Below, piece after piece: positions 42,813 to 60,597 of a DNA stretch of 61,427 nt (its first letter is position 1; each line of letters opens with the position of its first letter). Source of the stretch: a virus; IMG/VR virus record IMGVR_UViG_3300045988_166584. One strand, 5' to 3'. The notes beneath the pieces were generated by a model. That model ran no database searches, was not told the DNA's origin, and saw nothing but the letters and a program-made list of their open reading frames with translations. Made by a program: the position numbers and the translations under genes.

Positions 42813-43630
42813 TATTCCAGTCCGAAAATCTTCTTGTCCGTGATAGATTCTCTATTAGCTTCCAAAAACTCTATGAAATGTTCTACGTGTGCCGTGAGCA
42901 GTTTCACTGTCTGTTCGTGATTGTAAGTATAATATTCCGGATATTGCGTACCACTGATAAGCGGTGTGCGGCTGGTACCGCCTTTCAGCGCATAAGCCGT
43001 AAACTCAAATGCCTTTATGTTTTCCATCTGACCGGAAGCAATTAGGCAATAAGGGTAGACATGGCGCTGCCACCCGTGGGCGTATTTGCCGAACTCGTAT
43101 TTAGATGTGGATTTTATGTCATAAACAACATCCTTTCGGAGTTCGTCGATAAATCCGTATAACTCCACATTTCCGTACTGGGTAGGAAGAATGGCGGATA
43201 CATAGACCTGACTTAATGAGCCTTTGAAATACTCTGCCTGTTCTATACACCATTGTCTGTCGAAAAGGAAATGCCGTGCAGGTGCGATATCCGTTGCGGG
43301 GAAAGCTACTTGTATAGTATTGGTTTCCTTATCGCCAATGATGGAGTAGGGGGAACGCTCTGTCGGCACGTGATTTTCGCAATGGACATAGCAGTCAATG
43401 ATAGCATTGAAGGCTGTTCCCTTGTCGGCTGCTTCACTCTCAAACGGTACACGGTTGATAGCATCCAGAAGGTCTTGTTTCAGGCTCTCTTCGATTTCTT
43501 CCGGAGAGCGTTTATACTCTCCGGTTTCATTATCAATGTTCCAGAAGTTTTCCACTTCTTCATCAGCTCTCAGATACTTGTCGAATTTGTCAAGTAATGA
43601 GGGATAGATTCTATAACTAGGCTGCTTCAT
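42812..43630 (-). CDS. PD-(D/E)XK (RecB/Cas4-like) exonuclease
   Basis: 272 aa with GFIDEL...VVYDIKST (D...D-x-K), next to an AAA_24-type ATPase. Confidence 0.6.
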   Translation of the reverse strand: MKQPSYRIYPSLLDKFDKYLRADEEVENFWNIDNETGEYKRSPEEIEESLKQDLLDAINRVPFESEAADKGTAFNAIIDCYVHCENHVPTERSPYSIIGDKETNTIQVAFPATDIAPARHFLFDRQWCIEQAEYFKGSLSQVYVSAILPTQYGNVELYGFIDELRKDVVYDIKSTSKYEFGKYAHGWQRHVYPYCLIASGQMENIKAFEFTAYALKGGTSRTPLISGTQYPEYYTYNHEQTVKLLTAHVEHFIEFLEANRESITDKKIFGLE

Positions 43631-45584
43631 ATATTTTTTTTACTTTGTCGAATTTCAACCCTAATTCCTTGCATCTTTTATTCAGTAGCATACCTGCTTG
43701 TAATTTGCTGTCGAAGATATGCTGCAGGCTCTCCAGTGATTGTTTCACTTCGTTGGCCGTGTCCGCATCCGCTACCATGGCTATCTGTTCCTTGATAACT
43801 TCCATAAGACCTTCATATTCGGAGGACAGTTCTGCCTGTTTTTCCTGATAGGTCTGATAAGTGTTTACAATCTTTGTCATAAAGTCGTTCGGTCCGGTGA
43901 TTGTACCTTCTGCATTAATGATAACTGGTATCTTTATGCGTGCCGGAAGATTGCAGGTATTCTTACCGTAGAATTTCTCGCACGGATCAAAAGAGATGGT
44001 TCTGTCCTTACCTATGGCTTCCATATAGCCTACAAGATCAAGCTCTTTAATCAGGTCACCAGCAGAAGAACCTCCGATTTCAGGGCGTATCTGTTTGTCC
44101 TCTCCGTTCTTTTCCTCGCGTTCATGGGCTACGAATATTACTGATTTACCCATTAGTGTGACTTGATTTACGAAGTTGATGAACATGTTCTTTCGTACTC
44201 CGTATCCTTGCAGGGACAGTGTGCCGTCCGCTTTCTTCATTTTGGGATTGTTCTTCATTATATATTTATCCATGAAGGATAACATTTTTCCTGCCGTATC
44301 AATAACGATGGTCTTGTATTCGGCAATTTCTCCGCTCGTAAGAACTTCATCCACCTCTTCCCATTTGGAAATTTGCACGGTGTCTACACGGTGGGCTGCA
44401 TTCACACGGTGAACGCCACCGTCAAAATCAAGCAATAACGGTTTGGGTGAACTTAAAGCAAGTGTAGTGTTGTGAGTTACTATATAATCGTCAGTGACAT
44501 ACAATTCATCCTCATTAGATACCTTAATGCAGACACATTCACAATCTTCTACACGGGTCACATCTACTATATATCTAGATATAGTAGTTTTACTCCATTC
44601 AGAAGCTTTTCTTTCAAGACTGAAAGGGCATTCTTTGATTTTCACGCTAACACGGTATTCGTCCCCCTTATCTTCTCTTTCGTATACATGTACATTAGCT
44701 ATACCACCTAAAGAGTTAACAAGCTCCACCACATCATAAGCAAGATTCTTACTTGCAGTAGAAAAACAAACTCTATTTTTTATTGCACATCCATCTGTGT
44801 CCATAAGGCCGCGAAGCAAAGATATACGTTGTTGATGGCTTCCTAATTTGTAACAATCAGGGATAAATTTCTCTGTAGAATGGACGTTCAATCCTAACCG
44901 CTTTATTCTCTGAATATATCCTTCCCCATTGCCTGAAAGAATTATGCCGTATTGAGGGCATTGCGGTGCATCATTCTTACTCAAGGAATAGCCGTTCGGA
45001 AGCAGTCGTTCTACGTTGCTGGCTATTTGTGAATCTACATCAGGATTTGAGAATATTGCTACATTCCCCGTCAGAGAACCATCGCCGATTAAAACCCCAA
45101 GAATATACGGGTCAACATCATAACTCTTTTCAGTATATTCCATAGCATCTACTACCGGAATCTCAAAGCGTGGGATAGGTTTTCTTGTAGAAAGCTGTCT
45201 TGATGGAGACAAGGAGCAAGAGATACCCTTCGACATCATCTCTTTAAGGGTCATGTTTCTAAATCCTGCTTTACGGCTATTGCCAGTACTTGAACGAACA
45301 TTCCATATATGTTCTTCATCGCAATAAGTTATGGCTCCGTCATTTGTCATGACTCTGTACACAGGTCTTACTCCTTGAGGATAAACACCCAATACTTTCT
45401 GTTCTTTACCGTCACATCCCATCAGGGTGTCTCCTACAGATATATCGGATAACTTCTTATATCCTTCCGGTGTCAGAACGCTGCAATACAAAGGTTGAGC
45501 CTTTCCCATACCTGGTTGTCCGTAGATTAATGCCGACAGGGCATTCTTAACTGTCAGTTCGTTAGGTTTTTTGATAAGTCCCAT
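43617..45584 (-). CDS. AAA_24 / Sak4-like ATPase interrupted by an intein in the Walker A loop
   Basis: The exteins read LIYGQPGMGK | TTLALSSPKPLLLDFDGG, which rejoin to GQPGMGKTT. The preferred start is ATG 45584 rather than the track's TTG at 45590. Confidence 0.75.
   Translation of the reverse strand: MGLIKKPNELTVKNALSALIYGQPGMGKAQPLYCSVLTPEGYKKLSDISVGDTLMGCDGKEQKVLGVYPQGVRPVYRVMTNDGAITYCDEEHIWNVRSSTGNSRKAGFRNMTLKEMMSKGISCSLSPSRQLSTRKPIPRFEIPVVDAMEYTEKSYDVDPYILGVLIGDGSLTGNVAIFSNPDVDSQIASNVERLLPNGYSLSKNDAPQCPQYGIILSGNGEGYIQRIKRLGLNVHSTEKFIPDCYKLGSHQQRISLLRGLMDTDGCAIKNRVCFSTASKNLAYDVVELVNSLGGIANVHVYEREDKGDEYRVSVKIKECPFSLERKASEWSKTTISRYIVDVTRVEDCECVCIKVSNEDELYVTDDYIVTHNTTLALSSPKPLLLDFDGGVHRVNAAHRVDTVQISKWEEVDEVLTSGEIAEYKTIVIDTAGKMLSFMDKYIMKNNPKMKKADGTLSLQGYGVRKNMFINFVNQVTLMGKSVIFVAHEREEKNGEDKQIRPEIGGSSAGDLIKELDLVGYMEAIGKDRTISFDPCEKFYGKNTCNLPARIKIPVIINAEGTITGPNDFMTKIVNTYQTYQEKQAELSSEYEGLMEVIKEQIAMVADADTANEVKQSLESLQHIFDSKLQAGMLLNKRCKELGLKFDKVKKIYEAA
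44469..45500 (-). mobile_element. Intein with a LAGLIDADG homing-endonuclease domain
   Basis: The N-terminal block is (AQPLY)CSVLTPEGYKKLSDISVGD. The LAGLIDADG blocks are LGVLIGDGSL and LRGLMDTDGC. The C-terminal block is YIVTHN followed by a +1 Thr. Confidence 0.8.
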
Positions 45585-45617
45585 AATCAATAATTTTTAG
45601 TGGTTAATAAATGAGTT

Positions 45618-45658: not shown

Positions 45659-45826
45659 ATAAATAAGGATATAGAATATAACATATAAAGAGGGCTCTCA
45701 CCTCACGCTGTCCTTTCCAGCGGCTTTGGGTTAAATTATTATCTAACAAATTGCTCTCTGCTTCACTGCCTTGAAGTCTCTAACATGGCTACGTTTAAAG
45801 GGTGTACGGCTCCCTCTCTTTGGGTG
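45659..45826 (-). ncRNA. Candidate structured RNA downstream of the tRNA-like gene
   Basis: There is no ORF. Structure includes a long-range pairing AGAGGG (about 45812) with CCCTCT (about 45692), plus hairpins CTTCA-N6-TGAAG and CGCTG-GAAAGGA-CAGCG. Confidence 0.4.
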
Positions 45827-45936
45827 TGGGTAATACAGGATTCGAACCTGTATCTGTATTCCTCCTGAAAACAATCACAAACCGTCTGAACGTAAAGAAA
45901 AAAGTGAATACCGCTTTTCCATTAAGCTAATTACCC
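45827..45936 (-). tRNA. tRNA-like gene with 46 nt in place of the 7-nt anticodon loop
   Basis: Hand-folded on the minus strand: acceptor GGGTAAT/ATTACCC, U8 A9, D arm GCTT-AATGGAA-AAGC, anticodon stem GTATT/AATAC, variable loop AGAT, T arm ACAGG-TTCGAAT-CCTGT, discriminator A. There is no encoded CCA and no clean anticodon hairpin. Confidence 0.6.
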
Positions 45937-49454: not shown

Positions 49455-50156
49455 ATGAAACCTTGGGAACGCATACAAAAAATAATGGATGAAGAAGGAC
49501 TTAATAAAAATTCCTTCAGTAAGGCTATTGGCATTTCAAATAATGTCACTATAACCCGTATTATCAATGAAAAACGCTCTCCGTCAAGGAGTACATGTGA
49601 AAAAATAGTTTCCGCCTTTCCTAAATATAATCTTGCATGGATACTAACTGGAGAAGGAAGTATGCTAACTGATATAACTTCTTATGATGAAGCATCTCCG
49701 ATTGACGAGCCAATCATACTACGTGTACCACTCGTGAGTCAATACGCGCAAGCAGGATACCTCTGCGGATACGCGGATGCAGCATACATGGCAACTTTGC
49801 CTACTATACCATATATAGTAGACCATGAAGCGCAAGGACACTACGTTGCCTTTGAGGTGAAAGGAGACAGTATGAATGACGGGACAGAGGATGCCATTTT
49901 GGAAGGTGACCGCCTGCTGTGTCGGGAAATTATGCCGCATCTATGGGCAGATAGCAAACTGCATATCAGAAAATGGGATTTCGTTATCGTACATACTGAA
50001 GGAATACTGGTGAAGCGTATCATTGATCATAATGTGGAAAACCATACCATCACAATACACTCACTGAACTCAATGTACCTGGATAAAGTCATCAGCCTTT
50101 CTGACGTGAAGCAGATATTCAATGTTATAGAATTACAAAGACCAAGAAGACGATGA
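49455..50156 (+). CDS. CI/LexA-type repressor (XRE HTH plus S24 peptidase)
   Basis: The HTH is FSKAIGISNNVTITRIINEKRSPS. The S24 catalytic motifs are EVKGDSMNDG (Ser) and ILVKRI (Lys). Confidence 0.85.
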   Translation: MKPWERIQKIMDEEGLNKNSFSKAIGISNNVTITRIINEKRSPSRSTCEKIVSAFPKYNLAWILTGEGSMLTDITSYDEASPIDEPIILRVPLVSQYAQAGYLCGYADAAYMATLPTIPYIVDHEAQGHYVAFEVKGDSMNDGTEDAILEGDRLLCREIMPHLWADSKLHIRKWDFVIVHTEGILVKRIIDHNVENHTITIHSLNSMYLDKVISLSDVKQIFNVIELQRPRRR

Positions 50157-51001
50157 GTTTATTCAACATATTCAGCCAAAAGAAAGCTATAAAAGAAGAA
50201 CTTGTTTCCCAAAAGGAATACTACACATCGGAGGAAATTGAGGCTATCGCTTGTAAGGGCTTCAGAGACAAATGGCAAATCGGAATAAGAGATAACCCTA
50301 ATTTGTTTCCTGTTATGTTTGAATGGCGTACGATAGGAGAATATAAAAGCATTTTGTGTTTTAAGAGTTTTAGAACAGAAGAATTGAATTACGCTCCTGT
50401 CTTCACTAGTTTTGATGACAGCCTAAAGGAATTTTTCCATGAAGACGGAAAGTCAGACCCGGTTTCTTTAAAAACAACTTTTTTTGGATATGTTATATTG
50501 AAATATCCTGTTGAAAAGTGTGCGGTTCGTATTTTGGCTCCCATATATAATGAGATGTACAAAAGAAACCATAAACCTGTTGAGGATTTTTCTGATATTC
50601 TTGAAATAGACTTTTCTCCTGAAGCTATATTGAATCACGAACAGGAAGTTGAACGTATGGCAAATGAAGCAAAGGCTAAAAGAGAACGTGAAGAAATTGA
50701 AGCTATAAAAGAAAAACTCCTTAAAAAGAAACGTAAAGAGCAGTTAGAAAAAATGGCTTTACGTGAACTAATGGATGAGGGTATTTTATTCCCAGAAGCT
50801 GGGAAACGACCACCTATACCAAAAGATGTCGTAGATGCAGTTTGGAGAAGGGATGGAGGAAGATGTGTTTATTGCGGTTCTACTGAAAACCTGCAGCTTG
50901 ACCATATTATTCCCTTTTCCAAAGGTGGTGCGACTACAGTGGAGAATCTTCAATTATTATGCCAAAAATGTAATTTACAAAAATCAAATAAAATAGGATA
51001 A
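50153..51001 (+). CDS. HNH endonuclease with an unknown N-terminal domain and a central coiled coil
   Basis: The HNH region is CVYCGSTENLQLDHIIPFSKGGATTVENLQLLCQKCNLQKSNK. Its start overlaps the repressor stop (ATGA). Confidence 0.8.
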   Translation: MSLFNIFSQKKAIKEELVSQKEYYTSEEIEAIACKGFRDKWQIGIRDNPNLFPVMFEWRTIGEYKSILCFKSFRTEELNYAPVFTSFDDSLKEFFHEDGKSDPVSLKTTFFGYVILKYPVEKCAVRILAPIYNEMYKRNHKPVEDFSDILEIDFSPEAILNHEQEVERMANEAKAKREREEIEAIKEKLLKKKRKEQLEKMALRELMDEGILFPEAGKRPPIPKDVVDAVWRRDGGRCVYCGSTENLQLDHIIPFSKGGATTVENLQLLCQKCNLQKSNKIG

Positions 51002-51180
51002 TGATGAAAGAATATATAGCTATATTTGAATATAATGGAGAAATACAGAATCTAGAATTTGTGTCTAATTCAAACTCTCAAGAAAAACTAAATTCTGAAG
51101 CAAGAATGTATGTAAATGACTATCTTCTAACAAAATATGGAACTGTTACATATCATTTTATAAGAGTTATTCCTAAATAA
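51001..51180 (+). CDS. Hypothetical small protein (59 aa, below the ORF-track cutoff)
   Basis: Hand-translated as MMKEYIAIFEYNGEIQNLEFVSNSNSQEKLNSEARMYVNDYLLTKYGTVTYHFIRVIPK. Its ATG overlaps the HNH stop (TAATG). Confidence 0.45.
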   Translation: MMKEYIAIFEYNGEIQNLEFVSNSNSQEKLNSEARMYVNDYLLTKYGTVTYHFIRVIPK

Positions 51181-51216
51181 GAACCATTTTAAACACAATG
51201 TTTATATAAGCTAAAG

Positions 51217-51786
51217 ATGAAAGTCAATATTAAAGTTAGAGATAATTATAAAAGCTATTGCTCCTTAATAGATGAAGAGAAAATTTTGTTAAATAACAAA
51301 ATCGTTCTTGACGAAAAGAAAAATAGCAGACCGGATTATAAAGAAAAAAATACTCCTACTTATAGCGATGTCTTACCAAATGATATAATTTTTACCATAC
51401 AACAAAAAGAAACTGAAGAAAAAGATTTTAAATTCATTTTACGCTGTGTTCCTTTTTGTGAAAGACCTTTTTTTAGATATGATTCTACGGGACCTTCTCA
51501 TAGGAATTCCAATTTGCCTATTCCTATAGAGGAACAACAAGTTCCAACTCCTCATTTTCATCGGTTCGTAGCTGATGGAAAGGAGATAGCTTACAAGACA
51601 AAGGTGCTGTTGGATGAAAAGCAATCAAAAGTTTTGGAAGATATTTCTATGTGTGTTTTGCATTTTATGCAGGAGGCCAATATAAAATTTGAAAATTTTG
51701 ATTTAATTTCGACCCCAGGTGTTCTTCCTTTTAAAATGGAAGAAAATATTGATCCTTTAGAAAATGTACAATTTGATATTGAATAA
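51217..51786 (+). CDS. Hypothetical protein
   Basis: 189-aa ORF with conserved-looking His/Cys patches (CVPFCERPFFRYDSTGPSHRN and PTPHFHRF). No family recognised. Confidence 0.55.
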   Translation: MKVNIKVRDNYKSYCSLIDEEKILLNNKIVLDEKKNSRPDYKEKNTPTYSDVLPNDIIFTIQQKETEEKDFKFILRCVPFCERPFFRYDSTGPSHRNSNLPIPIEEQQVPTPHFHRFVADGKEIAYKTKVLLDEKQSKVLEDISMCVLHFMQEANIKFENFDLISTPGVLPFKMEENIDPLENVQFDIE

Positions 51787-51788
51787 TC

Positions 51789-52592
51789 ATGGAAGATATA
51801 ATAAAGATTATAATAGCGTCATTTAGTTCTTTGTGGAAAGTGAAAAAATATGGAAAGACCATAGAAATAATAACGCCTTTCTTTACCACAAATGATTGCT
51901 TTGTTTCTGTTTTTCTAACAGAAAGAGAGGGCTATTACATTATTACTGATGGTGGTTGGATTAGTGAAAATTACTATAATAATTTTTTCGATAGTGATGA
52001 TGAGTCTTATTTAAGACTGTTCACTTATTATAAGGAACAATATTCTATACGTGAGACGGAATCAAACAATAAAATTTATTATTATAAAACTACAATGAAA
52101 AAAGAATTAGTACCAAATTTGGTTCTTGAGGTGTCTAATTTTATTTCAACCGTGGTAAGTTCTTCTTTTATAAAATTTCAAGATGATAAGGATAAGGATT
52201 TGCAAAAGAGATTCCGTACGCAGGTGAGTAACTTTCTTACAGCTGGGTTTGATAAGAAGGAATTGTCGTTTAATGGGTTTATTGATGAGAGGTATAAGGA
52301 TATAAAATTTAATGCTGTTGTTAAAAGAAGTGATAGATTTACATTGTTTAATTACGTAACTGGTACTACTGAATTTTATTTTCGTGGTAGTATTGGACGT
52401 TCTAATATGAATTTCCAGTTAATAAATAGGACAATGCTAAAAAAGCAGATACATAGGCGTGTGACGGTTGTGAATGATCAAGCTTCAGGATATAAAATTG
52501 AAAAATTGAAACAATATCTTGACTTGATATCGGATGAAGCGGAGTCTGTAGTCGTTAATTGGACTAATAGAAAAAAACTATTAGAATTATAA
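51789..52592 (+). CDS. Hypothetical protein (possibly DUF1828/DUF1829-like)
   Basis: 267-aa ORF starting 2 nt after the previous stop. The segment IITPFFTTNDCFVSVFLTEREGYYIITDGGW recalls DUF1828, but this is a low-certainty recollection. Confidence 0.55.
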   Translation: MEDIIKIIIASFSSLWKVKKYGKTIEIITPFFTTNDCFVSVFLTEREGYYIITDGGWISENYYNNFFDSDDESYLRLFTYYKEQYSIRETESNNKIYYYKTTMKKELVPNLVLEVSNFISTVVSSSFIKFQDDKDKDLQKRFRTQVSNFLTAGFDKKELSFNGFIDERYKDIKFNAVVKRSDRFTLFNYVTGTTEFYFRGSIGRSNMNFQLINRTMLKKQIHRRVTVVNDQASGYKIEKLKQYLDLISDEAESVVVNWTNRKKLLEL

Positions 52593-52619
52593 TGGGATGA
52601 TGATTGTTTAATACGAAAA

Positions 52620-52720
52620 AACGTTAGACAATGTAATAATGAAGTCGGTGATACTAGTGTGGGGAGCTTTAGCTTTTATGCCAAGAATGCAATCTACAAA
52701 GATCAAATAAAATAGGATAA
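52620..52720 (+). pseudogene. Remnant of a second HNH gene 3' end
   Basis: 52676-52720 matches 50957-51001 at 41 of 45 positions and ends in the same ...SNKIG stop. Upstream similarity (GDTSVGSFSF against GATTVENLQL) is broken by a frameshift and an in-frame TAG at 52670-52672. Confidence 0.65.
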
Positions 52721-52739
52721 ACTTATAATTAAATTTAAG

Positions 52740-53510
52740 ATGAAAATACATCATTATACTTCTATTGAAACATTAGAAATGATTCTTAAGAACAAAAGTA
52801 TAAAGTTTAATCGTTTGGATCAAGTGGATGATAAAGCAGAATATAAATATGACTCAACGGTTTATGATACGAATATAAAATTAGGTAAATATACTTTTGT
52901 GAGTTGTTGGACTAAGTCGGAAATGGAAAATATTGATTTATGGAATCGATACGGGAAAGGGAATAAAGGTGTAAGGATAAGTTTGGATGAGGATATGTTT
53001 GAAACTTACGATGTGGGAACTGTTAATAGATCATTTTATAATAATAGGGAATATTGTTTTGAAAATTTTGTAGTCAGTTCTTATATTAATAAAGTCGGTC
53101 TTGTTGATGTGAAATATGAACAAAATATTGAGCTATATTATAAAGAAGCTATCAAATGCTTTGATCAAGGAGTTGCGTTTAAACATGATAATATTGGCAT
53201 TTATAAGAAAAGGGAATGGGGATTACAGAATGAAAGCCGTTTCATTATTCATGCACAACCGTTTGAACCGGCTTTAATGAGCAATCATCCTTTGAGCTTT
53301 CCGTTGGCTCTTGGTACTGCTTATAGAAATGGAATGGAGCTGAGTAGAACAGCCCTTTATATTCCATTAAAGCAGGAAGTTTTAGAGCATTTAGAAATAA
53401 CAATGGGACCTGGAACAACTGATGAAGATCGGAAAAAGGTTGAAAAGATATTGAAAGATTGTAATATTAAAGCAGAAATCAAAGATAGTGCATTAAAGGG
53501 GGATTTATAA
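52740..53510 (+). CDS. DUF2971-family protein (paralogue 3 of 3)
   Basis: 256 aa with the N-terminal signature KIHHYTSIETLEMILKNKSIKFNRLDQVDDKAEY. Confidence 0.65.
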   Translation: MKIHHYTSIETLEMILKNKSIKFNRLDQVDDKAEYKYDSTVYDTNIKLGKYTFVSCWTKSEMENIDLWNRYGKGNKGVRISLDEDMFETYDVGTVNRSFYNNREYCFENFVVSSYINKVGLVDVKYEQNIELYYKEAIKCFDQGVAFKHDNIGIYKKREWGLQNESRFIIHAQPFEPALMSNHPLSFPLALGTAYRNGMELSRTALYIPLKQEVLEHLEITMGPGTTDEDRKKVEKILKDCNIKAEIKDSALKGDL

Positions 53511-53527
53511 TATGACTATTCTGGAAA

Positions 53528-53677
53528 ATGTTAGATTATGCTTGGCTAGGTATAGTAGTTCAGTTTATTGACGAAAACAAGAAAGATGTGAAACACGTTA
53601 TTGAAAGCCTTGATGATATTTATAACTATGAGGATGAATTCTTTAAGGCGATCGATATGTACGAACATAAGGAATAG
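53528..53677 (+). CDS. Possible small acidic protein (49 aa)
   Basis: Hand-translated as MLDYAWLGIVVQFIDENKKDVKHVIESLDDIYNYEDEFFKAIDMYEHKE. Support is weak. Confidence 0.3.
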   Translation: MLDYAWLGIVVQFIDENKKDVKHVIESLDDIYNYEDEFFKAIDMYEHKE

Positions 53678-53769
53678 GATAAAAGTTCTAGAAGATTAAT
53701 TAAAAATAATTGCAGCATTAGCAAATGTATTGTTAGTGCTGCAATGTGAACATTGGAGTTTTATTATAT

Positions 53770-54030
53770 ATGATTCAAAGCATATATGACTGTTCATGTC
53801 AGTGGAAAAATCAAAAACACTGTAGGCTTTCACCTTCATGCAAAGGGTGGGGATGCCGATTTCTGTCTACGCCCATTGAAGAGATTCCAGCAACAATCCA
53901 GGAGAAAGCAAAGCTCTTTTCCAGAGTGTATCGGGAAGCGAAGCAAAAGGGAGTGCTGGAATGCCCGCACTACCGATCAATTTTCATAGATGAGGTGCTG
54001 GCCAATTTGCCGAAGGGTGAAGTGTGTTAA
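53770..54030 (+). CDS. Small Cys-rich hypothetical protein
   Basis: The preferred start is ATG 53770 (MIQSIYDCSCQW) rather than the track's GTG at 53746. Confidence 0.4.
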   Translation: MIQSIYDCSCQWKNQKHCRLSPSCKGWGCRFLSTPIEEIPATIQEKAKLFSRVYREAKQKGVLECPHYRSIFIDEVLANLPKGEVC

Positions 54031-54948: not shown

Positions 54949-56124
54949 ATGACAACTCTTAAAGCCGCCGTTGTTCCGGCCAAGGTGCTGAAAAACGGCA
55001 AACACAGAATTCGTATCGCAATTGGTCATAAACAGGAAACAAGATACATCGTTACCCGATTTGAAATAGATAATACTGCTAATTTTAAAGGAGGGCAGGT
55101 GGTAGGTGTTCCTGATGCCGCACATGTCAATGCTAAATTACGTGGAATACTTAATTCATATCAGGATGCCTTGGATAAGATAAACACATCATCCTATACT
55201 TGTACCCAACTTGTCGAATACTTGTCCTCGGTAAAGCAGGGAGCCATCTCTTATAGTGTCGCTTCGGCTGACTATATGCAGAATTTGATTAAAGAGGGGA
55301 GAAGGACCACTGCCTCCTTATATCAAAGGGCGAGTGATTACTTCATTGAGTTTGTCAAATATGATATAATGCTTGATGGAATTACTCCCCGGACCATAAA
55401 GGACTTTGATATTTATCTAAAGAATGTCCGAAGGCTGGCTCCTGTTACTTGTGGTATGCACATGGCACATTTGAAGGCAATAATCAATCAAGCAATAAGG
55501 GATAAGAAGGTATCATATGACACGCATCCTTTTGAATATTATGAAAGACCAGCAGGAATGCCCAAAGAGCGTGATATCTCGGTAGCTGACGTAAAGAAGA
55601 TAAGGGATGCGGAGATAAAAGAGAAGTCTCAGCGTGTTGCCAGGGATGTGTTCATGCTTTCGTATTATCTAGGAGGTATCAATCTGATGGACTTGATGCA
55701 ATACAATTTCAAAGATGCGAAAATTATGGAATATGTACGTGAAAAATCCAAAAACACAAAGAAAGGTGATATGAAGATTAGCTTCACTATTCCTGAGGAA
55801 GCAAAACCGATTATCAAAAGATGGATGGGACGTAATGGAAAGCTTGATTTTGGTTATAAATATTCTTATCCTAATTTTCGTAACTATGTAACAAAAGAAA
55901 TTATAAGGTTAGGGGAGAGGCTGGAGGTAGAATCGCATGTCGTATATTATTCAGCCCGGAAATCCTTTGTCCAACATGGTTTTGAACTGGGTATACCATT
56001 GGAAACTTTGGAATATTGTATAGGCCAAAGCATGAAATCCAATAGACCGATCTTTAATTATGTCAGAATTATGAGAAAACATGCTGATGAAGCCATAAGA
56101 AAGATTTTAGATAATCTAAAGTGA
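54949..56124 (+). CDS. int: Tyrosine site-specific integrase (Bacteroides type)
   Basis: 391 aa. The N-terminal arm-binding-like region is LKAAVVPAKVLKNGKHRIRIAIGHKQETRYI. The C-terminal catalytic region is YYSARKSFVQHGFELG...NYVRIM. Confidence 0.85.
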   Translation: MTTLKAAVVPAKVLKNGKHRIRIAIGHKQETRYIVTRFEIDNTANFKGGQVVGVPDAAHVNAKLRGILNSYQDALDKINTSSYTCTQLVEYLSSVKQGAISYSVASADYMQNLIKEGRRTTASLYQRASDYFIEFVKYDIMLDGITPRTIKDFDIYLKNVRRLAPVTCGMHMAHLKAIINQAIRDKKVSYDTHPFEYYERPAGMPKERDISVADVKKIRDAEIKEKSQRVARDVFMLSYYLGGINLMDLMQYNFKDAKIMEYVREKSKNTKKGDMKISFTIPEEAKPIIKRWMGRNGKLDFGYKYSYPNFRNYVTKEIIRLGERLEVESHVVYYSARKSFVQHGFELGIPLETLEYCIGQSMKSNRPIFNYVRIMRKHADEAIRKILDNLK

Positions 56125-56325: not shown

Positions 56326-56647
56326 ATGCAATTGCGTTAGTCTGCGGAAAAAGAAAACGGTTCCGCTTTCCCGTTGCGTTACATTCCGTAATCGAAACAG
56401 TGGGTACATTAATACTCCACACGGGGGTCGGAACCGTATTATGAAGAAGCTACAGGCAATAAAAATCGTCTGTAGCTCAATACGAGACAACGCCTCGATT
56501 ACTTCAAAATGTAACGCAATGCAAAGATGGGTATTTTATATGACTTTACAAAAAACAAAATAGGAAAATTCAAGTAAAGCATAGGGGTGAGGATTATAAA
56601 AGGGTAGGGAAGGCAGCTTATTAGGTTGCCTTCTTTAATCTATAATA

Positions 56648-57148
56648 CTATTTTAATAGAGATATTATCTCATTAGGAGTACAAATTATATGGTCTGCAT
56701 CTGATCCTAACAATGACTCTTCATTAGCACTTCCCCATAAACAAGCAACACTTTCAATTCCTGCTTTATTTGAGGCTATTACATCACTAACCTCATCCCC
56801 AAAAGAAATAACATCTTCCGCACTTAACCCTAATCGAGTCAATGCTAAATTCATTCCTTCCGAGTTTGGCTTTTGCAATTTAACATCATGATAAGCAACA
56901 ACTGTATCAAAAGGTATATTGAAGTGATTTAACACTTTCTTTACATAACCAGAAGGAGCTTTACTCACAATTCCAACTTTTAAATTATTATCTCTTATAA
57001 ATTCAAATACTTTATCATAAGCTTCATATAATATAAATTTTGGAATCAGTGAATAAACTATACTCCAATTGTGGGCACTTCTATACGGCTTAGCAACATT
57101 TGAGTCTACTAAAGTTTGATCAAGATCAAAAATTATACCTTTCTTCAT
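56648..57148 (-). CDS. HAD-superfamily phosphatase
   Basis: Motif I is IIFDLDQTLVDS, motif II is GIVSKAP and motif IV is FGDEVSDV. Confidence 0.75.
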   Translation of the reverse strand: MKKGIIFDLDQTLVDSNVAKPYRSAHNWSIVYSLIPKFILYEAYDKVFEFIRDNNLKVGIVSKAPSGYVKKVLNHFNIPFDTVVAYHDVKLQKPNSEGMNLALTRLGLSAEDVISFGDEVSDVIASNKAGIESVACLWGSANEESLLGSDADHIICTPNEIISLLK

Positions 57149-57159
57149 AAATATACATA

Positions 57160-58149
57160 TTAGAATAATAGTTGTGATTCATAATCATGTTTATACTGGA
57201 GCTGTTTTCCTGACTGTAAGAATTCGTACAATATATTCGCTTCACGTAATTGAAGAGCTCCTTTTCTGATTAAATAACTATTTCCACAAACATTTTCCAT
57301 TTCATTCACACGTTGATCTTTATAAAAGACTGCTGCTAAAATTTTATTATTATCAATGGTCGTTTGGACAGCGTGCATTGTGCCACCCTTTATCCCAGTT
57401 TGAATTACAATTGTAGCAATAGCTAACCCCGCTTGTAATCTATCTCTTTCTACGAAATTCGTTTTAAAAGCAGGAGAGTCATAAAAATACTCGGATAGTA
57501 GCACTCCCCCTTTTTCTACTATTTCTATAGCAATGTTTTTATGTACCTTTGGAGAAATAGTATGAAGACCATGGGCTAATATAGCTGTAGTTGTTCCATT
57601 TTTTACAGATAAAGCTGCTTTATGAGCAATAGTATCACATCCTAATGCTAAGCCACTAACAATATTAAATCCTTTCTCTGCAAAATATTCTCCATAATAT
57701 TGCCCTGCTTCTTCACCTTCTATTGTAGGGTGTCTTGTTCCAATTATTGCAATTGATTTCTTATTATTAATACTATTAATATCACCTTTATAATTAAGTA
57801 TTATTGGAGCCACATCTTTAAATCTATTATTACTATATGATTTCAGCACTTTAAGTTGTATCGGAAACAAATTATCATATTGAGAAATAATATGTACACC
57901 ATTATTTAAAGATTTATCTAAAACTCTTTGAGCTTCATCAATAGCTTTCTGACAAAGTTCTAGGGTAAATTCTTTGTTTAATCTTATATAATGAGTTTTT
58001 ATACATTCCCGTATATATGATGTAATGTCATTATCAGAAAACAAGTTACGTTCTATCATAGCTTTAGCTACTAACTCCACATTCTTAGGACCAAAACCTG
58101 GCAAATGTTTCAGCTTAATAATTAATTCCGTTTCTTTAGATACACTCAT
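57160..58149 (-). CDS. DprA/Smf-like (SLOG Rossmann) protein
   Basis: The N-terminal SAM/HhH-like segment is LKHLPGFGPKNVELV. The core reads IAIIGTRHPT...VSGLALGCDTIAHKAAL...TTAILAHGL...TGIKGGTMHA. Confidence 0.75.
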   Translation of the reverse strand: MSVSKETELIIKLKHLPGFGPKNVELVAKAMIERNLFSDNDITSYIRECIKTHYIRLNKEFTLELCQKAIDEAQRVLDKSLNNGVHIISQYDNLFPIQLKVLKSYSNNRFKDVAPIILNYKGDINSINNKKSIAIIGTRHPTIEGEEAGQYYGEYFAEKGFNIVSGLALGCDTIAHKAALSVKNGTTTAILAHGLHTISPKVHKNIAIEIVEKGGVLLSEYFYDSPAFKTNFVERDRLQAGLAIATIVIQTGIKGGTMHAVQTTIDNNKILAAVFYKDQRVNEMENVCGNSYLIRKGALQLREANILYEFLQSGKQLQYKHDYESQLLF

Positions 58150-58355
58150 AACAATTATAAATTTTCGTTAGCATGTTCATCATGACTTGTTCTTGCAATA
58201 CAAAATAAATAAAAAATTATTTTGGGCCACACCTTCTTTAATGTTTTTATTATTTCTGCAACAGTTGTACATATTGTTATATCATTAACTATTAAGATTT
58301 TTTTTGTTTAAGTTATAAGTACGATTATTTATTTTAATACATCATTTACTTCAGC

Positions 58356-58727
58356 CTATCTTTCTGCTAATGATAAGAAATGCATAGGTTTAGTTTCCCT
58401 CTTCTTATGAAGCAATTGTGGTAAATATTTTACTCCAGTTTCATCAGCAATTGCTTTGGCTAAACTTCTTATAGGCGCATTTTTTCGAGGTATAGTTTCT
58501 TCATGTCCCATCATTCTTATAACATAATCAAATTGTAATCCCTCAATATGTAAGGCCTTAACACATTCATTTATTATATCCTGACTTACTTCTTTTTTAC
58601 ATACAGATACCTTTTTGCTCCAATCTGTCAGGGATTGATTTCTAGGTATATAATATACAATATGATATGCATCTTTCAATCCCGCTTTTATATATTGCCA
58701 ATCATCAGATAAATATTTTAATTTCAT
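58356..58727 (-). CDS. ComF-like N-terminal fragment lacking the PRTase domain (truncated paralogue or accessory subunit)
   Basis: 123 aa. The ending ...LLHKKRETKPMHFLSLAER matches the ComF-type segment that normally precedes the PRPP-binding domain. About 200 nt of AT-rich non-coding DNA follows. Confidence 0.45.
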   Translation of the reverse strand: MKLKYLSDDWQYIKAGLKDAYHIVYYIPRNQSLTDWSKKVSVCKKEVSQDIINECVKALHIEGLQFDYVIRMMGHEETIPRKNAPIRSLAKAIADETGVKYLPQLLHKKRETKPMHFLSLAER

Positions 58728-58730
58728 ACA

Positions 58731-59342
58731 CTACTCTCTTGTTGTTTTTGCTAAAAAAATACCTATGACACTCTTAGCGCCTGTTTCTAAAAGTTTAGCA
58801 GCCACTTGTTTAAAGGAGCCCCCAGATGTTATAACATCATCAAACAGTAATACATTTTTACCTTTATATTGTTCGGAATTCAGTATTAAATATGGTATCA
58901 CATTTTTATTACTGGTACCTTTTGTTTCTTCATGCTCAATTGCAGAAAGGTAATTAAAACCGTTTTCAATATTTAAAGCTTTAGCTACTATTTTACAAAA
59001 ATACTCAAAACGCTTATTTGTCTTTTCCGGTTTTGAAGCAGGTATTATCATTAAACAGGTGTTTTCAAGATTAACGCCCTCTTTTTTAATACTTTCCACT
59101 ATTATGTTAGCAGCATATTCAATAATAGCTTTATGTCCATCTTTAAAATCATATATAAAATTACGAACAGTCTTTATATTAATATCTACATCATTTCCTA
59201 TACCAGACAAAGGGTAATAATCATGAATTACATAGTACTTACATTCTTTAAAAGCCATGCTTCTTTCTTTTTTCATTCGAACTAAATATGAATCACGATG
59301 ACGGAATTCTTTAATTTTCTTATCATATTTAAGAGTATACAT
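58731..59342 (-). CDS. Phosphoribosyltransferase-domain protein (ComF-like)
   Basis: The PRPP-binding loop is KNVLLFDDVITSGGSF, preceded by LMIIPASKPEK. Confidence 0.7.
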   Translation of the reverse strand: MYTLKYDKKIKEFRHRDSYLVRMKKERSMAFKECKYYVIHDYYPLSGIGNDVDINIKTVRNFIYDFKDGHKAIIEYAANIIVESIKKEGVNLENTCLMIIPASKPEKTNKRFEYFCKIVAKALNIENGFNYLSAIEHEETKGTSNKNVIPYLILNSEQYKGKNVLLFDDVITSGGSFKQVAAKLLETGAKSVIGIFLAKTTRE

Positions 59343-59576
59343 AGCACTTTTTCTGTTTTAAAGGTTAATACTTTGTAAAAGTAGCAATAAATAAATTAAT
59401 ATTGTCATAATAATTAAATGTTAGATAACATAAAAAGTCCCGACCGCTACCAGTCAAGGCTCAAATTTATCAATGATGATTTTTATTACAAACTTGCCGC
59501 TAATGAGAAAGGTTGTGGAATTAAGGATGAAAAGCCCCGACTTTCGCAAGCCGGAGCATCTAAATTTAAAGTTTTT

Positions 59577-60078: not shown

Positions 60079-60597
60079 TTAGCCAACATAAGAGATATCA
60101 TTTATACGGTTCATCCAGCCCCGTTTGAACTTGTTATTTGCAGGGCGCTTCCGGCATATATCCTCGATGAAATCAAACCGTGCAATCTTGATCTGATCAA
60201 ACAGTTCACGTGGATTACGGGAATTGACTGCGGCAAGTGTCTTAGACCCGACAATGCCATCAGGAATCACGCCAAGCAAATCCTGCGGTATTTTGATACC
60301 GTGCACTCCGCTTGCCCAGATCCAATCGACAAGGATATCAGCTATGGATTGGGATTTAATTTCGTCAGCTTTCCACCTGTCCCAATACATGGTTTTCAAA
60401 ATCTCCGTCCATTCCTCTTTCGTGATGTTTTTCAATCTTTCAACCGTAGGCTTGGGATAGCCTTTCTTTCGGCAATACGCTTCATAAGTTCCAATGGTCA
60501 CACCCATATTGGTAGCCCCTCCTAAATCGTCCGGGTCATTTACAAAACCGCCTTCCCACTTCAGGATAAACGGTGCAAGTTTTTTCACATCAGCCAT
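60079..60597 (-). CDS. Endolysin (GH108 lysozyme-like plus PG_binding_3)
   Basis: [24 protein letters not shown] is the GH108 signature. The C-terminal half is a peptidoglycan-binding-like region. Confidence 0.8.

Follow-up and report, generated by a model that had tools for sequence, protein, structure and literature searches.

A cassette of four minus-strand genes in a Bacteroides temperate phage is, judged by its protein matches, a variant of the Shosta (ShosTA) system in which the two enzyme domains of the toxin are encoded as separate genes. The system is thus of a known kind, and it is the arrangement of its genes that is less familiar. By homology, this split-layout toxin–antitoxin system probably acts in anti-phage defence by abortive infection. 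The cassette lies in a window of 61,427 nucleotides, by which we mean the whole stretch of DNA that was analysed, and has the following features.

54949-56124, integrase (PHROG integrase, 2.2e-17), on one flank of the cassette
56609..56633, minus strand, 3' hairpin GAAGGCAAC...GCTGCCTTC, directly past the HAD stop codon
56648..57148, minus strand, HAD phosphatase encoded on its own, 166 aa, catalytic motifs complete, counterpart of the N-terminal HAD domain of fused ShosT proteins
57160..58149, minus strand, ShosA-like antitoxin candidate, 329 aa, DprA fold
58164..58727, minus strand, PRTase-2 pseudogene, of which the first 123 codons are open (58356-58727)
58731..59342, minus strand, PRTase-1, ShosT-like toxin candidate, 203 aa, a standalone phosphoribosyltransferase (PRTase) of ComF/ShosT fold with an intact PRPP loop
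59376..59383, minus strand, promoter-like box TACTTTTA, 34-41 nt upstream of the ATG
59418..59431, no strand assigned, conserved dyad ATGTTATCTAACAT, upstream of the promoter-like box
59439..59458, minus strand, second hairpin, 8-bp stem followed by a T-run
59534..59557, minus strand, terminator-like hairpin, 10-bp stem with 6 G-C pairs followed by TTTT
60079-60597, GH108 endolysin, on the other flank of the cassette

The sequence-only reading had described four minus-strand genes in an AT-rich island between the integrase and the lysis genes, and the ORFs, their position and the AT-richness are confirmed. The four ORFs (58731-59342, 58356-58727, 57160-58149 and 56648-57148, encoding 203, 123, 329 and 166 aa) are correctly placed, the integrase and the endolysin lie on either side, and the GC content of the cassette is 29.9% against 39.3% for the window, a value as low as which is found in only 0.7% of equal-sized windows. 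The genes for the candidate toxin and antitoxin share the minus strand within 2.7 kb, and only the PRTase-2 pseudogene separates PRTase-1 from the ShosA gene. Similarity to phage loci of B. ovatus is confined to positions 59393-56611 and hairpins flank the unit on both sides, pointing to a discrete, self-contained and horizontally exchanged mobile unit of 2.8 kb (~56611-59393). When the cassette was compared by blastn with 50,697 phage records, no match was found.

By its profile matches and motifs, PRTase-1 is a PRTase of the ShosT family, and its catalytic loop is intact. It contains a Pribosyltran domain (1.9e-9) and matches the PADLOC ShosT profile PDLC03962 at 8.5e-20, and the narrower E. 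coli-type ShosT model PDLC03012 gave no match to it. The PRPP-loop motif LLFDDVITSGGS occupies residues 165-176, and D168 and D169, which align with D331 and D332, the aspartate pair that E. coli ShosT needs in order to be toxic, are invariant in 21 homologues. The best fold match of the predicted model (pLDDT 90) is H. pylori ComF (7p0h), followed by ShosT (8zvd, 8zvb and 8zvc at ranks 2, 7 and 10), making the earlier description of a ComF-like PRTase with an intact PRPP loop a fair one. In sequence, PRTase-1 resembles E. coli ShosT only weakly (a match of no more than 46 residues, at 2e-4; hhalign probability 90% over 51 columns), and phmmer against the PDB found nothing at E<=0.01. PRTase-1 aligns to residues 348-387 of the fused HAD/PRTase ShosT of the Pseudomonas phage PfAC02a, and a domain search of its 203 aa detected no HAD domain.

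The 329-aa protein, correctly recognized before as a full DprA/Smf-like protein (DNA_processg_A, 8.5e-48), belongs to the ShosA family and retains both ssDNA-binding arginines. It matches the PADLOC ShosA profile at 4e-60 (201.6 bits), and its closest sequences in the PDB are those of ShosA itself (8zva and 9vzo, 1.3e-21). R139 in the GTR motif and R235 in the FVERDR motif align with R139 and R234, the essential ssDNA-binding arginines of E. coli ShosA, an alignment that presumes a 5-residue numbering offset in chain 8zva. The position of a third E. coli residue, R261, is occupied by glutamine, and an R261E substitution in E. coli ShosA gives no phenotype (PMC11961720, PMC12961424).

The standalone HAD protein (HAD_2, 6e-22) carries the DLDQT and GDEVSD motifs reported from the sequence, and 58 homologues share its residues D8, D10, T12, K93, G117, D118 and D122 without exception. 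The predicted model (pLDDT 97.5) has a Rossmannoid fold with a TM score of ~0.8 to many HAD-IA structures, including the BT2127 pyrophosphatase. The matches of the fold search were generic HAD-IA phosphatases (BT2127 ranked 20th), and no ShosT chain, 8zvd included, stood in the top 50; ShosT was likewise not among the phmmer matches in the PDB, and hhalign to the E. coli ShosT N-domain is weak (29% probability). The protein does, though, align to residues 1-144 of the fused PfAC02a ShosT (34% identity, E 2e-19). The sequence-only reading took the phosphatase for an extension of the system. Because characterised ShosT already has a built-in N-terminal HAD-fold pyrophosphatase domain (PMC11961720) and the window HAD aligns to that of PfAC02a ShosT, it is a ShosT domain encoded by a gene of its own and not an addition. 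Its best family matches are PpaX- and PGP-type small-molecule phosphatases, with secondary matches to polynucleotide 3'-phosphatase families (PNK3P 1.1e-6, TIGR01664 5.4e-10, PNKP chains 7e-5), and its cap is much reduced. Sequence does not reveal its substrate, pyrophosphatase activity being only one option.

The 123-aa ORF had been interpreted as a paralogue that ends where the PRTase domain should begin, and as an extra ComF-like subunit. Comparison with relatives that have an intact 192-aa second PRTase shows instead that it is the front of a pseudogene. Its frame runs on through three in-frame stops (TAG, TAA and TAA) to position 58164, and the C-terminus of a PRTase (ILIVNDITICTT...) can still be recognized in it. 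Relative to the intact homologues there are five inactivating lesions: Q124>stop (CAG>TAG), deletions of 1, 2 and 3 nt, and a GAT>AAT change that converts the DD of the PRPP loop to ND and destroys the loop. The 206-nt 'gap' that follows the ORF is therefore a pseudogene remnant and not intergenic DNA. Recoding of the three stops was considered and rejected, as the 1- and 2-nt deletions fall between them and catalytic residues are lost; that all three stops share a frame is a coincidence of compensating indels. An assembly error was also rejected, as an independent metagenome contig that is 99.3% identical carries the same lesions. PRTase-2 was identified through its intact homologues rather than profiles: Pfam and PADLOC profile scans of the read-through product gave no matches, and BLASTP against PRTase-1 shows weak paralogy only (E 0.002-0.01). 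The 123 open codons have a dN/dS of 0.14 against the homologous locus L001, a value that is uninformative because most of the divergence (dS 0.64) probably predates inactivation.

Together, the ShosT (8.5e-20) and ShosA (4e-60) matches identify the cassette as a candidate Shosta system, an assignment made from matches to individual HMMs. The PADLOC Shosta models also match the experimentally studied proteins of the E. coli P2 hotspot. A DprA-like plus PRTase anti-phage pair in P2/P4 hot spots, brought up in the sequence-only reading, is real: it is ShosTA/Shosta, described by Rousset et al. 2022 (PMC9122126), and the window proteins match its profiles. The E. coli system (APEC O1, P2-like phage hotspot; 8ZVB-8ZVD, 8ZVA, 9VZO) shares with the window a PRTase toxin that has the DD pair in its PRPP loop, an antitoxin that is DprA-like and binds ssDNA, the presence of a HAD-fold hydrolase, and carriage by a temperate phage near one genome end. 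However, it consists of two genes, with the hydrolase fused to the PRTase N-terminus (424 aa), whereas the window has four (PRTase, PRTase-2 pseudogene, ShosA and a separate HAD downstream) and shows low sequence similarity; in addition, the E. coli ShosT N-domain has lost the GDxxxD motif that the window HAD retains. The fused-hydrolase architecture of characterised ShosT is not found in the window, which represents an architectural variant. A second comparison is offered by the prophage-borne system of the Pseudomonas filamentous phage PfAC02a (OR790968), which encodes the closest ShosA relative in the phage database (36.6% identity over 89%) and a ShosT with a HAD domain that is 34% identical to the window HAD and has canonical motifs, but which combines HAD and a single PRTase in one 478-aa polypeptide in the order [HAD-PRTase]-ShosA. 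A description of a split-HAD or multi-PRTase Shosta was not found in the literature searched, the coverage of which is incomplete and gives no proof of novelty.

Other systems resemble the cassette in part. PsyrTA (RqlHI) likewise pairs a DprA-like antitoxin with a PRTase-containing toxin and gives secondary matches (PsyrT 1.3e-10, PsyrA 1.3e-29), but PsyrT is long, with a RecQ-like helicase region before the PRTase, whereas the window PRTases are ~200 aa and have no helicase; the PsyrT model has 689 positions, of which PRTase-1 matches 493-686 only, and the helicase domain was not found. Some Bacteroidales relatives with PRTases of 380-905 aa (A-H-Plong) may be closer to the PsyrTA type. Type III-A retrons also use a PRTase as an abortive-infection effector (weak match PRTase_III-A, 1.2e-5), but neither a reverse transcriptase nor msr/msd RNA was found near the cassette. 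The folds of the competence proteins ComFC and DprA are shared as well, ComF 7p0h being the top match of PRTase-1 and DprA structures matching ShosA, but competence loci show no association with a HAD phosphatase, and the context in the window is that of a prophage or defence island. Neither protein reaches the NCBIfam equivalog cut-offs for competence proteins (ComF TIGR00201, 35.1 against 233.6; DprA TIGR00732, 145.4 against 191.2).

The PRTase, ShosA and HAD triad is co-conserved across phyla. In scans of one genome per species, 62 species had a strong HAD-family match encoded as a separate gene; a ShosA-like gene was adjacent in 60 of these loci and a PRTase in 51, with two or three PRTases in 10, and generic HAD loci taken for comparison had essentially no such neighbours. 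The HAD gene nearly always directly follows shosA, with one to three PRTases of about 190 to 905 aa located upstream or downstream. The four-gene cassette occurs in prophages of B. ovatus and B. intestinalis, and three-gene forms are present in Mucilaginibacter and others, extending to many bacterial phyla and to archaea, so that it is not specifically the Bacteroidales variant that had been suggested. Homologues lie in defence islands beside MmeI and Mrr, an Eco57I-helicase giant and SocA_Panacea, and relatives are carried on a Hymenobacter plasmid and a Segatella copri extrachromosomal element. The cassette is present in some and absent from other otherwise related phages, and PRTase-1 has been exchanged for an allele of 44.5% identity beside copies of PRTase-2, ShosA and HAD that are still 94-98% identical. 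Compared with a relative of 91% identity, the three intact, full-length genes have dN/dS values of 0.13-0.27, which indicates purifying selection.

In published work, ShosT is a toxin that depends on PRPP and upsets purine metabolism, and ShosA is an antitoxin that binds ssDNA and RecA (PMC11961720, PMC12961424). The earlier suggestion of chemistry on a nucleotide-derived signal finds no support. E. coli homologues protect 10^6-fold against T7 (PMC11961720) and also protect against lambda (PMC9122126). By extension from the E. coli work, PRTase-1 would use PRPP to disturb purine and nucleotide metabolism, leading to replication stress and cell death, and the HAD protein may assist through hydrolysis of pyrophosphate or of some similar phosphate ester. 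ShosA would bind ssDNA and RecA and neutralise the damage without binding the toxin. An infecting phage that stops host expression or floods the cell with ssDNA would cause the unstable or titrated ShosA to fail and the cell to die before the invader matures, and we propose that a lysogen would therefore be protected from other phages. Two observations sit less well with this reading. The HAD gene is almost always joined to shosA and not to the PRTase, which fits poorly with a pure toxin helper, and the related locus L019 has a PRTase-1 gene with neither ShosA nor HAD nearby, which is odd for an obligate toxin.

The HAD protein might alternatively belong with ShosA in an antitoxin or repair arm, where it would act either on the toxic product of the PRTase, by dephosphorylating it, or on DNA ends, by removing 3'-phosphates in the course of RecA-mediated repair, leaving the PRTases as interchangeable toxin cartridges around a conserved ShosA-HAD core. 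This is consistent with the near-universal order of ShosA then HAD beside PRTases that vary in place, number and length, with the exchange of the PRTase-1 allele alone, with a ShosA-HAD fusion in one genome (L034) and with the minimal cap and secondary polynucleotide 3'-phosphatase matches; moreover, a PPase-site mutant of E. coli ShosT is only marginally less toxic (PMC11961720). We nevertheless consider it unlikely, as the fusion partner of HAD is the PRTase in E. coli, Pseudomonas and Aquibacillus, the E. coli domain is a pyrophosphatase in vitro (PMC11961720), the best family matches are to small-molecule phosphatases, and a biochemical role cannot be assigned from gene order alone. An equally doubtful generalization is that the ancestral and widespread Shosta has three components, in which a core of ShosA and a canonical HAD is accompanied by one to three PRTase cartridges and the HAD works with the antitoxin, rendering the PRTase product harmless or preparing DNA ends for RecA-mediated repair, rather than as a toxin-driving pyrophosphatase. 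If true, E. coli ShosT, a fusion in which the HAD motifs have degenerated, would represent a derived exception, and the coupling model in the literature would have to be revised.

It is rather improbable that the cassette serves mainly as a prophage addiction or stabilisation module, with a stable toxin and decaying antitoxin killing segregants and any anti-phage effect incidental. ShosTA was first defined as a toxin–antitoxin pair with, in E. coli, an intrinsically unstable ShosA (PMC11961720), the cassette adjoins the integrase at the prophage end, and relatives reside on the plasmid and extrachromosomal element noted above; but the E. coli homologues protect against T7 and lambda, and many homologues are in chromosomal defence islands beside restriction systems. 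Addiction and defence are compatible and not exclusive, and the toxin–antitoxin logic of the proposed defence system may also stabilise the prophage.

With one toxin gene out of two inactivated in this lineage, a partial decay of the cassette is possible. That it is as a whole a decaying remnant without current function is very improbable: PRTase-2 has its five lesions and PRTase-1 is truncated or orphaned in the related contigs L019 and P0018, but the other three genes are full length, keep their catalytic motifs and have low dN/dS, and the identical configuration recurs at 99.3% identity in an independent metagenome. A role in the phage's own DNA metabolism or in competence (ComF and DprA in uptake or recombination, PRTase and phosphatase in salvage or base modification) is suggested by homologue database names that include ComF, DprA/Smf and phosphoribosyltransferase and by the DprA-like proteins of some phages, but is scarcely credible given scores far under the equivalog cut-offs beside 201.6 bits for ShosA, a location outside the replication module with its own hairpin boundaries, variable presence among related phages, and occurrence of the triad in non-phage defence islands and archaea.

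On the preferred ShosTA reading, Bacteroides prophage genes otherwise labelled ComF, DprA and HAD hydrolase would form a defence or toxin–antitoxin system, and for temperate phages of gut Bacteroidales it would be an exchangeable moron, a point that bears on phage therapy and on how phages and hosts interact in the gut. The E. coli model, with two genes and a fused toxin, would be one arrangement among several, raising the questions of what the HAD substrate is, why toxins are duplicated, allele-swapped and inactivated, and whether one ShosA covers several toxins.

Non-coding elements border the cassette on both sides; an Rfam scan of the window found a tRNA only. The terminator-like hairpin reported after the lysis genes is present, its 10-bp stem (59557-59534) and T-run lying directly past the stop codon of the last lysis-region ORF, where it would insulate the cassette from late transcription. 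The second hairpin (59439-59458) has a counterpart at the aligned position in related loci. The dyad at 59418-59431 is a possible operator; at the aligned place L001 has ATGTTTATAAACAT, which is palindromic too. The near-consensus promoter box reported earlier is plausible, though on other evidence than that given for it: TACTTTTA has one mismatch to the Bacteroides -7 consensus TAnnTTTG, exact copies of which occur in the window at chance frequency (64 found, 64.9 expected), and a sigma-70 scan is also at chance level. Every related leader nevertheless has an equivalent box where the alignment places it, and in L001, L005 and L006 this box is an exact TAnnTTTG, so that a promoter, while not significant from TACTTTTA alone, is plausible from conservation of its position across lineages. 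The 3' hairpin (56609-56633) has a weak T-run, but relatives retain its stem, in which a single C-G pair has changed to T-A by compensation, and the conserved cassette has its 3' end here.

The cassette (about 56611-59393, minus strand, ~2.8 kb) encodes a ShosTA system, a type already known, in a variant layout: the toxin is split and there are twin phosphoribosyltransferases (PRTases), one of which is dead here. The four minus-strand open reading frames (ORFs) described in the sequence-only reading are all present, with an integrase on one flank and lysis genes on the other:

58731-59342, minus: PRTase-1, 203 aa (Pfam Pribosyltran, 1.9e-9)
58356-58727, minus: gene 2, 123 aa, without a family match
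57160-58149, minus: ShosA-like, 329 aa (DNA_processg_A, 8.5e-48)
56648-57148, minus: HAD phosphatase, 166 aa (HAD_2, 6e-22)
54949-56124, plus: Bacteroides-type tyrosine integrase, one flank of the cassette
60079-60597: GH108 endolysin in the lysis region, the other flank
59557-59534: strong terminator-like hairpin between lysis genes and cassette
59458-59439: second hairpin between lysis genes and cassette

The GC content of the cassette is 29.9%, against 39.3% for the window, and only 0.7% of equal-sized stretches are equally AT-rich. Phage genes elsewhere in the window encode a tape measure, helicases and a methyltransferase.

The DprA-like and PRTase anti-phage pair mentioned in the earlier reading exists: it is a P2 hotspot system that protects against T7 and lambda (Rousset et al. 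2022, PMC9122126) and was named ShosTA by Millman et al. PADLOC profiles identify PRTase-1 as ShosT (8.5e-20) and the DprA-like protein as ShosA (4e-60), with weaker matches of window proteins to the related PsyrT and PsyrA. Among solved structures, the DprA-like protein is closest in sequence to ShosA (8ZVA and 9VZO, ~1e-21), and the top fold match of the PRTase-1 AlphaFold model (pLDDT 90.1) is H. pylori ComF, followed by ShosT (8ZVD, 8ZVB and 8ZVC). D168/D169 in the PRPP loop of PRTase-1 align with D331/D332 of E. coli ShosT, mutation of which abolishes toxicity (PMC11961720; PMC12961424), and R139 and R235 of the window ShosA align with the two arginines that ShosA requires both to bind ssDNA and to act as an antitoxin. 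By homology, then, the core of the cassette is ShosTA. If it works like the E. coli system (PMC11961720, PMC12961424), PRTase-1 would be a PRPP-dependent toxin and ShosA an antitoxin that binds ssDNA and RecA and acts without binding the toxin; infection would deplete or titrate ShosA, releasing the toxin.

The phosphatase, previously read as an extension of the system, is instead a split domain that aligns to the N-terminal part of fused ShosT. A Pseudomonas Pf phage record carries, adjoining ShosA, a 478-aa protein annotated as a fused 'HAD family hydrolase/PRTase (ShosT)'. The window HAD matches its residues 1-144 (34% identity, E 2e-19) and PRTase-1 matches its PRPP-loop region (E 8e-11), indicating that what are two separate genes in the window form a single two-domain protein elsewhere. 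The N-terminal HAD-fold domain of E. coli ShosT can be superimposed on BT2127, a HAD-family pyrophosphatase from B. thetaiotaomicron (PMC11961720). The window HAD model (pLDDT 97.5) has a canonical HAD-IA fold with TM ~0.8 to many phosphatases, including BT2127, and all its catalytic motifs are invariant across 58 homologues. No ShosT chain occurs among its top 50 fold matches, and hhalign to the E. coli ShosT N-domain is weak (29% probability, E 6e-4); that domain has GRSQED where the window HAD family has GDxxxD.

The least certain part of the mechanism is what the HAD does. Candidate substrates are PPi or a phosphomonoester, between which sequence alone does not tell. In the published view, a HAD-type pyrophosphatase pulls the PRTase reaction forward (PMC11961720). 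A function in the antitoxin or repair arm is nonetheless conceivable, given that the HAD almost always adjoins ShosA, is fused to it in one case, has a reduced cap and shows secondary similarity to polynucleotide 3'-phosphatases.

Gene 2, taken earlier for a 123-aa paralogue, is the front of a pseudogene. Its frame extends across three stops (TAG, TAA, TAA) as far as 58164, and a PRTase C terminus can still be read in it. Compared with the intact 192-aa counterpart of relatives, it carries CAG>TAG, 1-nt and 2-nt deletions that jointly restore the frame, a 3-nt deletion within the PRPP loop and GAT>AAT, changing the loop from DDITTTCTT to NDIT-ICTT. Sequence error is ruled out because an independent, 99.3% identical metagenome contig (L018) carries identical lesions, which points to a circulating lineage. 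Intact PRTase-2 matches the PsyrT and ShosT profiles at ~1e-8, has an invariant DD, although the usual loop glycine is absent from the family, and is the sole PRTase of a three-gene system in some genomes (L020 and several scanned loci). On these features it is predicted to be a ShosT-type protein with a function of its own.

The same four genes directly follow the lysis cassette in B. ovatus prophages and adjoin a related GH108 endolysin in B. intestinalis; Mucilaginibacter has PRTase-ShosA-HAD, and B. thetaiotaomicron ShosA-HAD-806-aa PRTase-235-aa PRTase. Co-occurrence of the families, proposed earlier as a check, was scanned with the HAD family, the component outside the known ShosTA definition, as query (one genome per species, 80 loci, neighbours scored with local HMMs). 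A ShosA-like gene adjoins 60 of 62 strong HAD matches, the two exceptions lying at contig ends; 51 have a ShosT-like PRTase and 10 have two or three PRTases. Among the 18 weak, generic matches, for which multiple PRTases were not counted, 2 have an adjacent ShosA-like gene and 1 a ShosT-like PRTase, and these few neighbours stem from genuine family members that were matched only in part. Architectures (P, PRTase; A, ShosA; H, HAD) include P-A-H (17), A-H-long P (9), P-P-A-H (6) and P-P-P-A-H (2), plus one HAD-PRTase fusion and one ShosA-HAD fusion, a single 490-aa ORF in a Dysgonomonas MAG (L034:4032-5501). In Segatella copri and S. sinensis (L049 and L053), one of the two loci being on an extrachromosomal replicon, three ShosT-like PRTase genes precede ShosA-HAD. 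Hosts span Bacteroidota, Bacillota, Spirochaetota, Desulfobacterota, Gammaproteobacteria, Chloroflexota and several archaeal orders. The archaeal ShosA-HAD loci, with or without PRTase (L058, L059, L062, L074 and L084; Methanosarcinales, ANME-1/Methanophagales and Methanomassiliicoccales MAGs), encode HADs 36-43% identical to the Bacteroides phage protein. MmeI, Mrr, an Eco57I-helicase giant and SocA_Panacea neighbour related loci elsewhere. We found no description of the split-toxin, twin-PRTase layout in the searchable literature. The cassette itself would not surprise a defence-system specialist, but comparison across genomes poses concrete questions about ShosTA that can be tested.

Homology to the B. 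ovatus phage loci is limited to 59393-56611 (91% identity) between unrelated flanks, which marks the cassette as a discrete, mosaic mobile unit. Three features mark its boundaries. A TAnnTTT[G/A] box occupies one aligned position of the leader in all lineages. Between the second hairpin and this promoter-like box lies a conserved dyad, ATGTTATCTAACAT (59418-59431), aligned with ATGTTTATAAACAT in the B. ovatus loci; palindromy is thus kept despite the change in sequence, suggesting an operator. The cassette 3' hairpin shows one compensatory stem change among relatives. Between two B. ovatus prophage loci (L001 and L006), PRTase-1 is only 44.5% identical, compared with 94% for PRTase-2, 98% for ShosA and 95% for HAD, with the breakpoint within the first ~13 codons of gene 2. 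This pattern identifies allelic replacement of the first PRTase alone, exchanged between lineages. The intact cassette genes are under purifying selection (dN/dS 0.13-0.27).

An orphan PRTase-1 gene (L019:4595-5209, ENA contig NODE_1462; PRTase 89% identical) has the same 51-nt leader and no ShosA or HAD within 11 kb, and is a 'toxin' without its antitoxin. Its homology to the window ends 11 nt before the end of the gene, followed by CTn-like genes (RteC, HTH_17). Another PRTase-1 copy (P0018), 99% identical, is broken after about residue 118.

Across the integrase from the cassette lies a second, equally extreme AT-rich island (about 50000-54000, GC 0.29-0.35; plus-strand ORFs 49455-53510), which may carry additional accessory or defence genes. 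A 657-aa ORF (43617-45590, minus) matches a terminase-large-subunit PHROG at residues 6-392 and a Sak4-like ssDNA-annealing PHROG at residues 375-652, an odd pairing that may reflect common P-loop similarity. Rfam calls a tRNA over 110 nt at 45826-45936 (minus; 53.9 bits), where ARAGORN finds none at default settings and, with introns allowed, a tRNA-Pro(AGG) whose anticodon loop contains a 37-nt insertion, an uncommon feature among phage and bacterial tRNAs.
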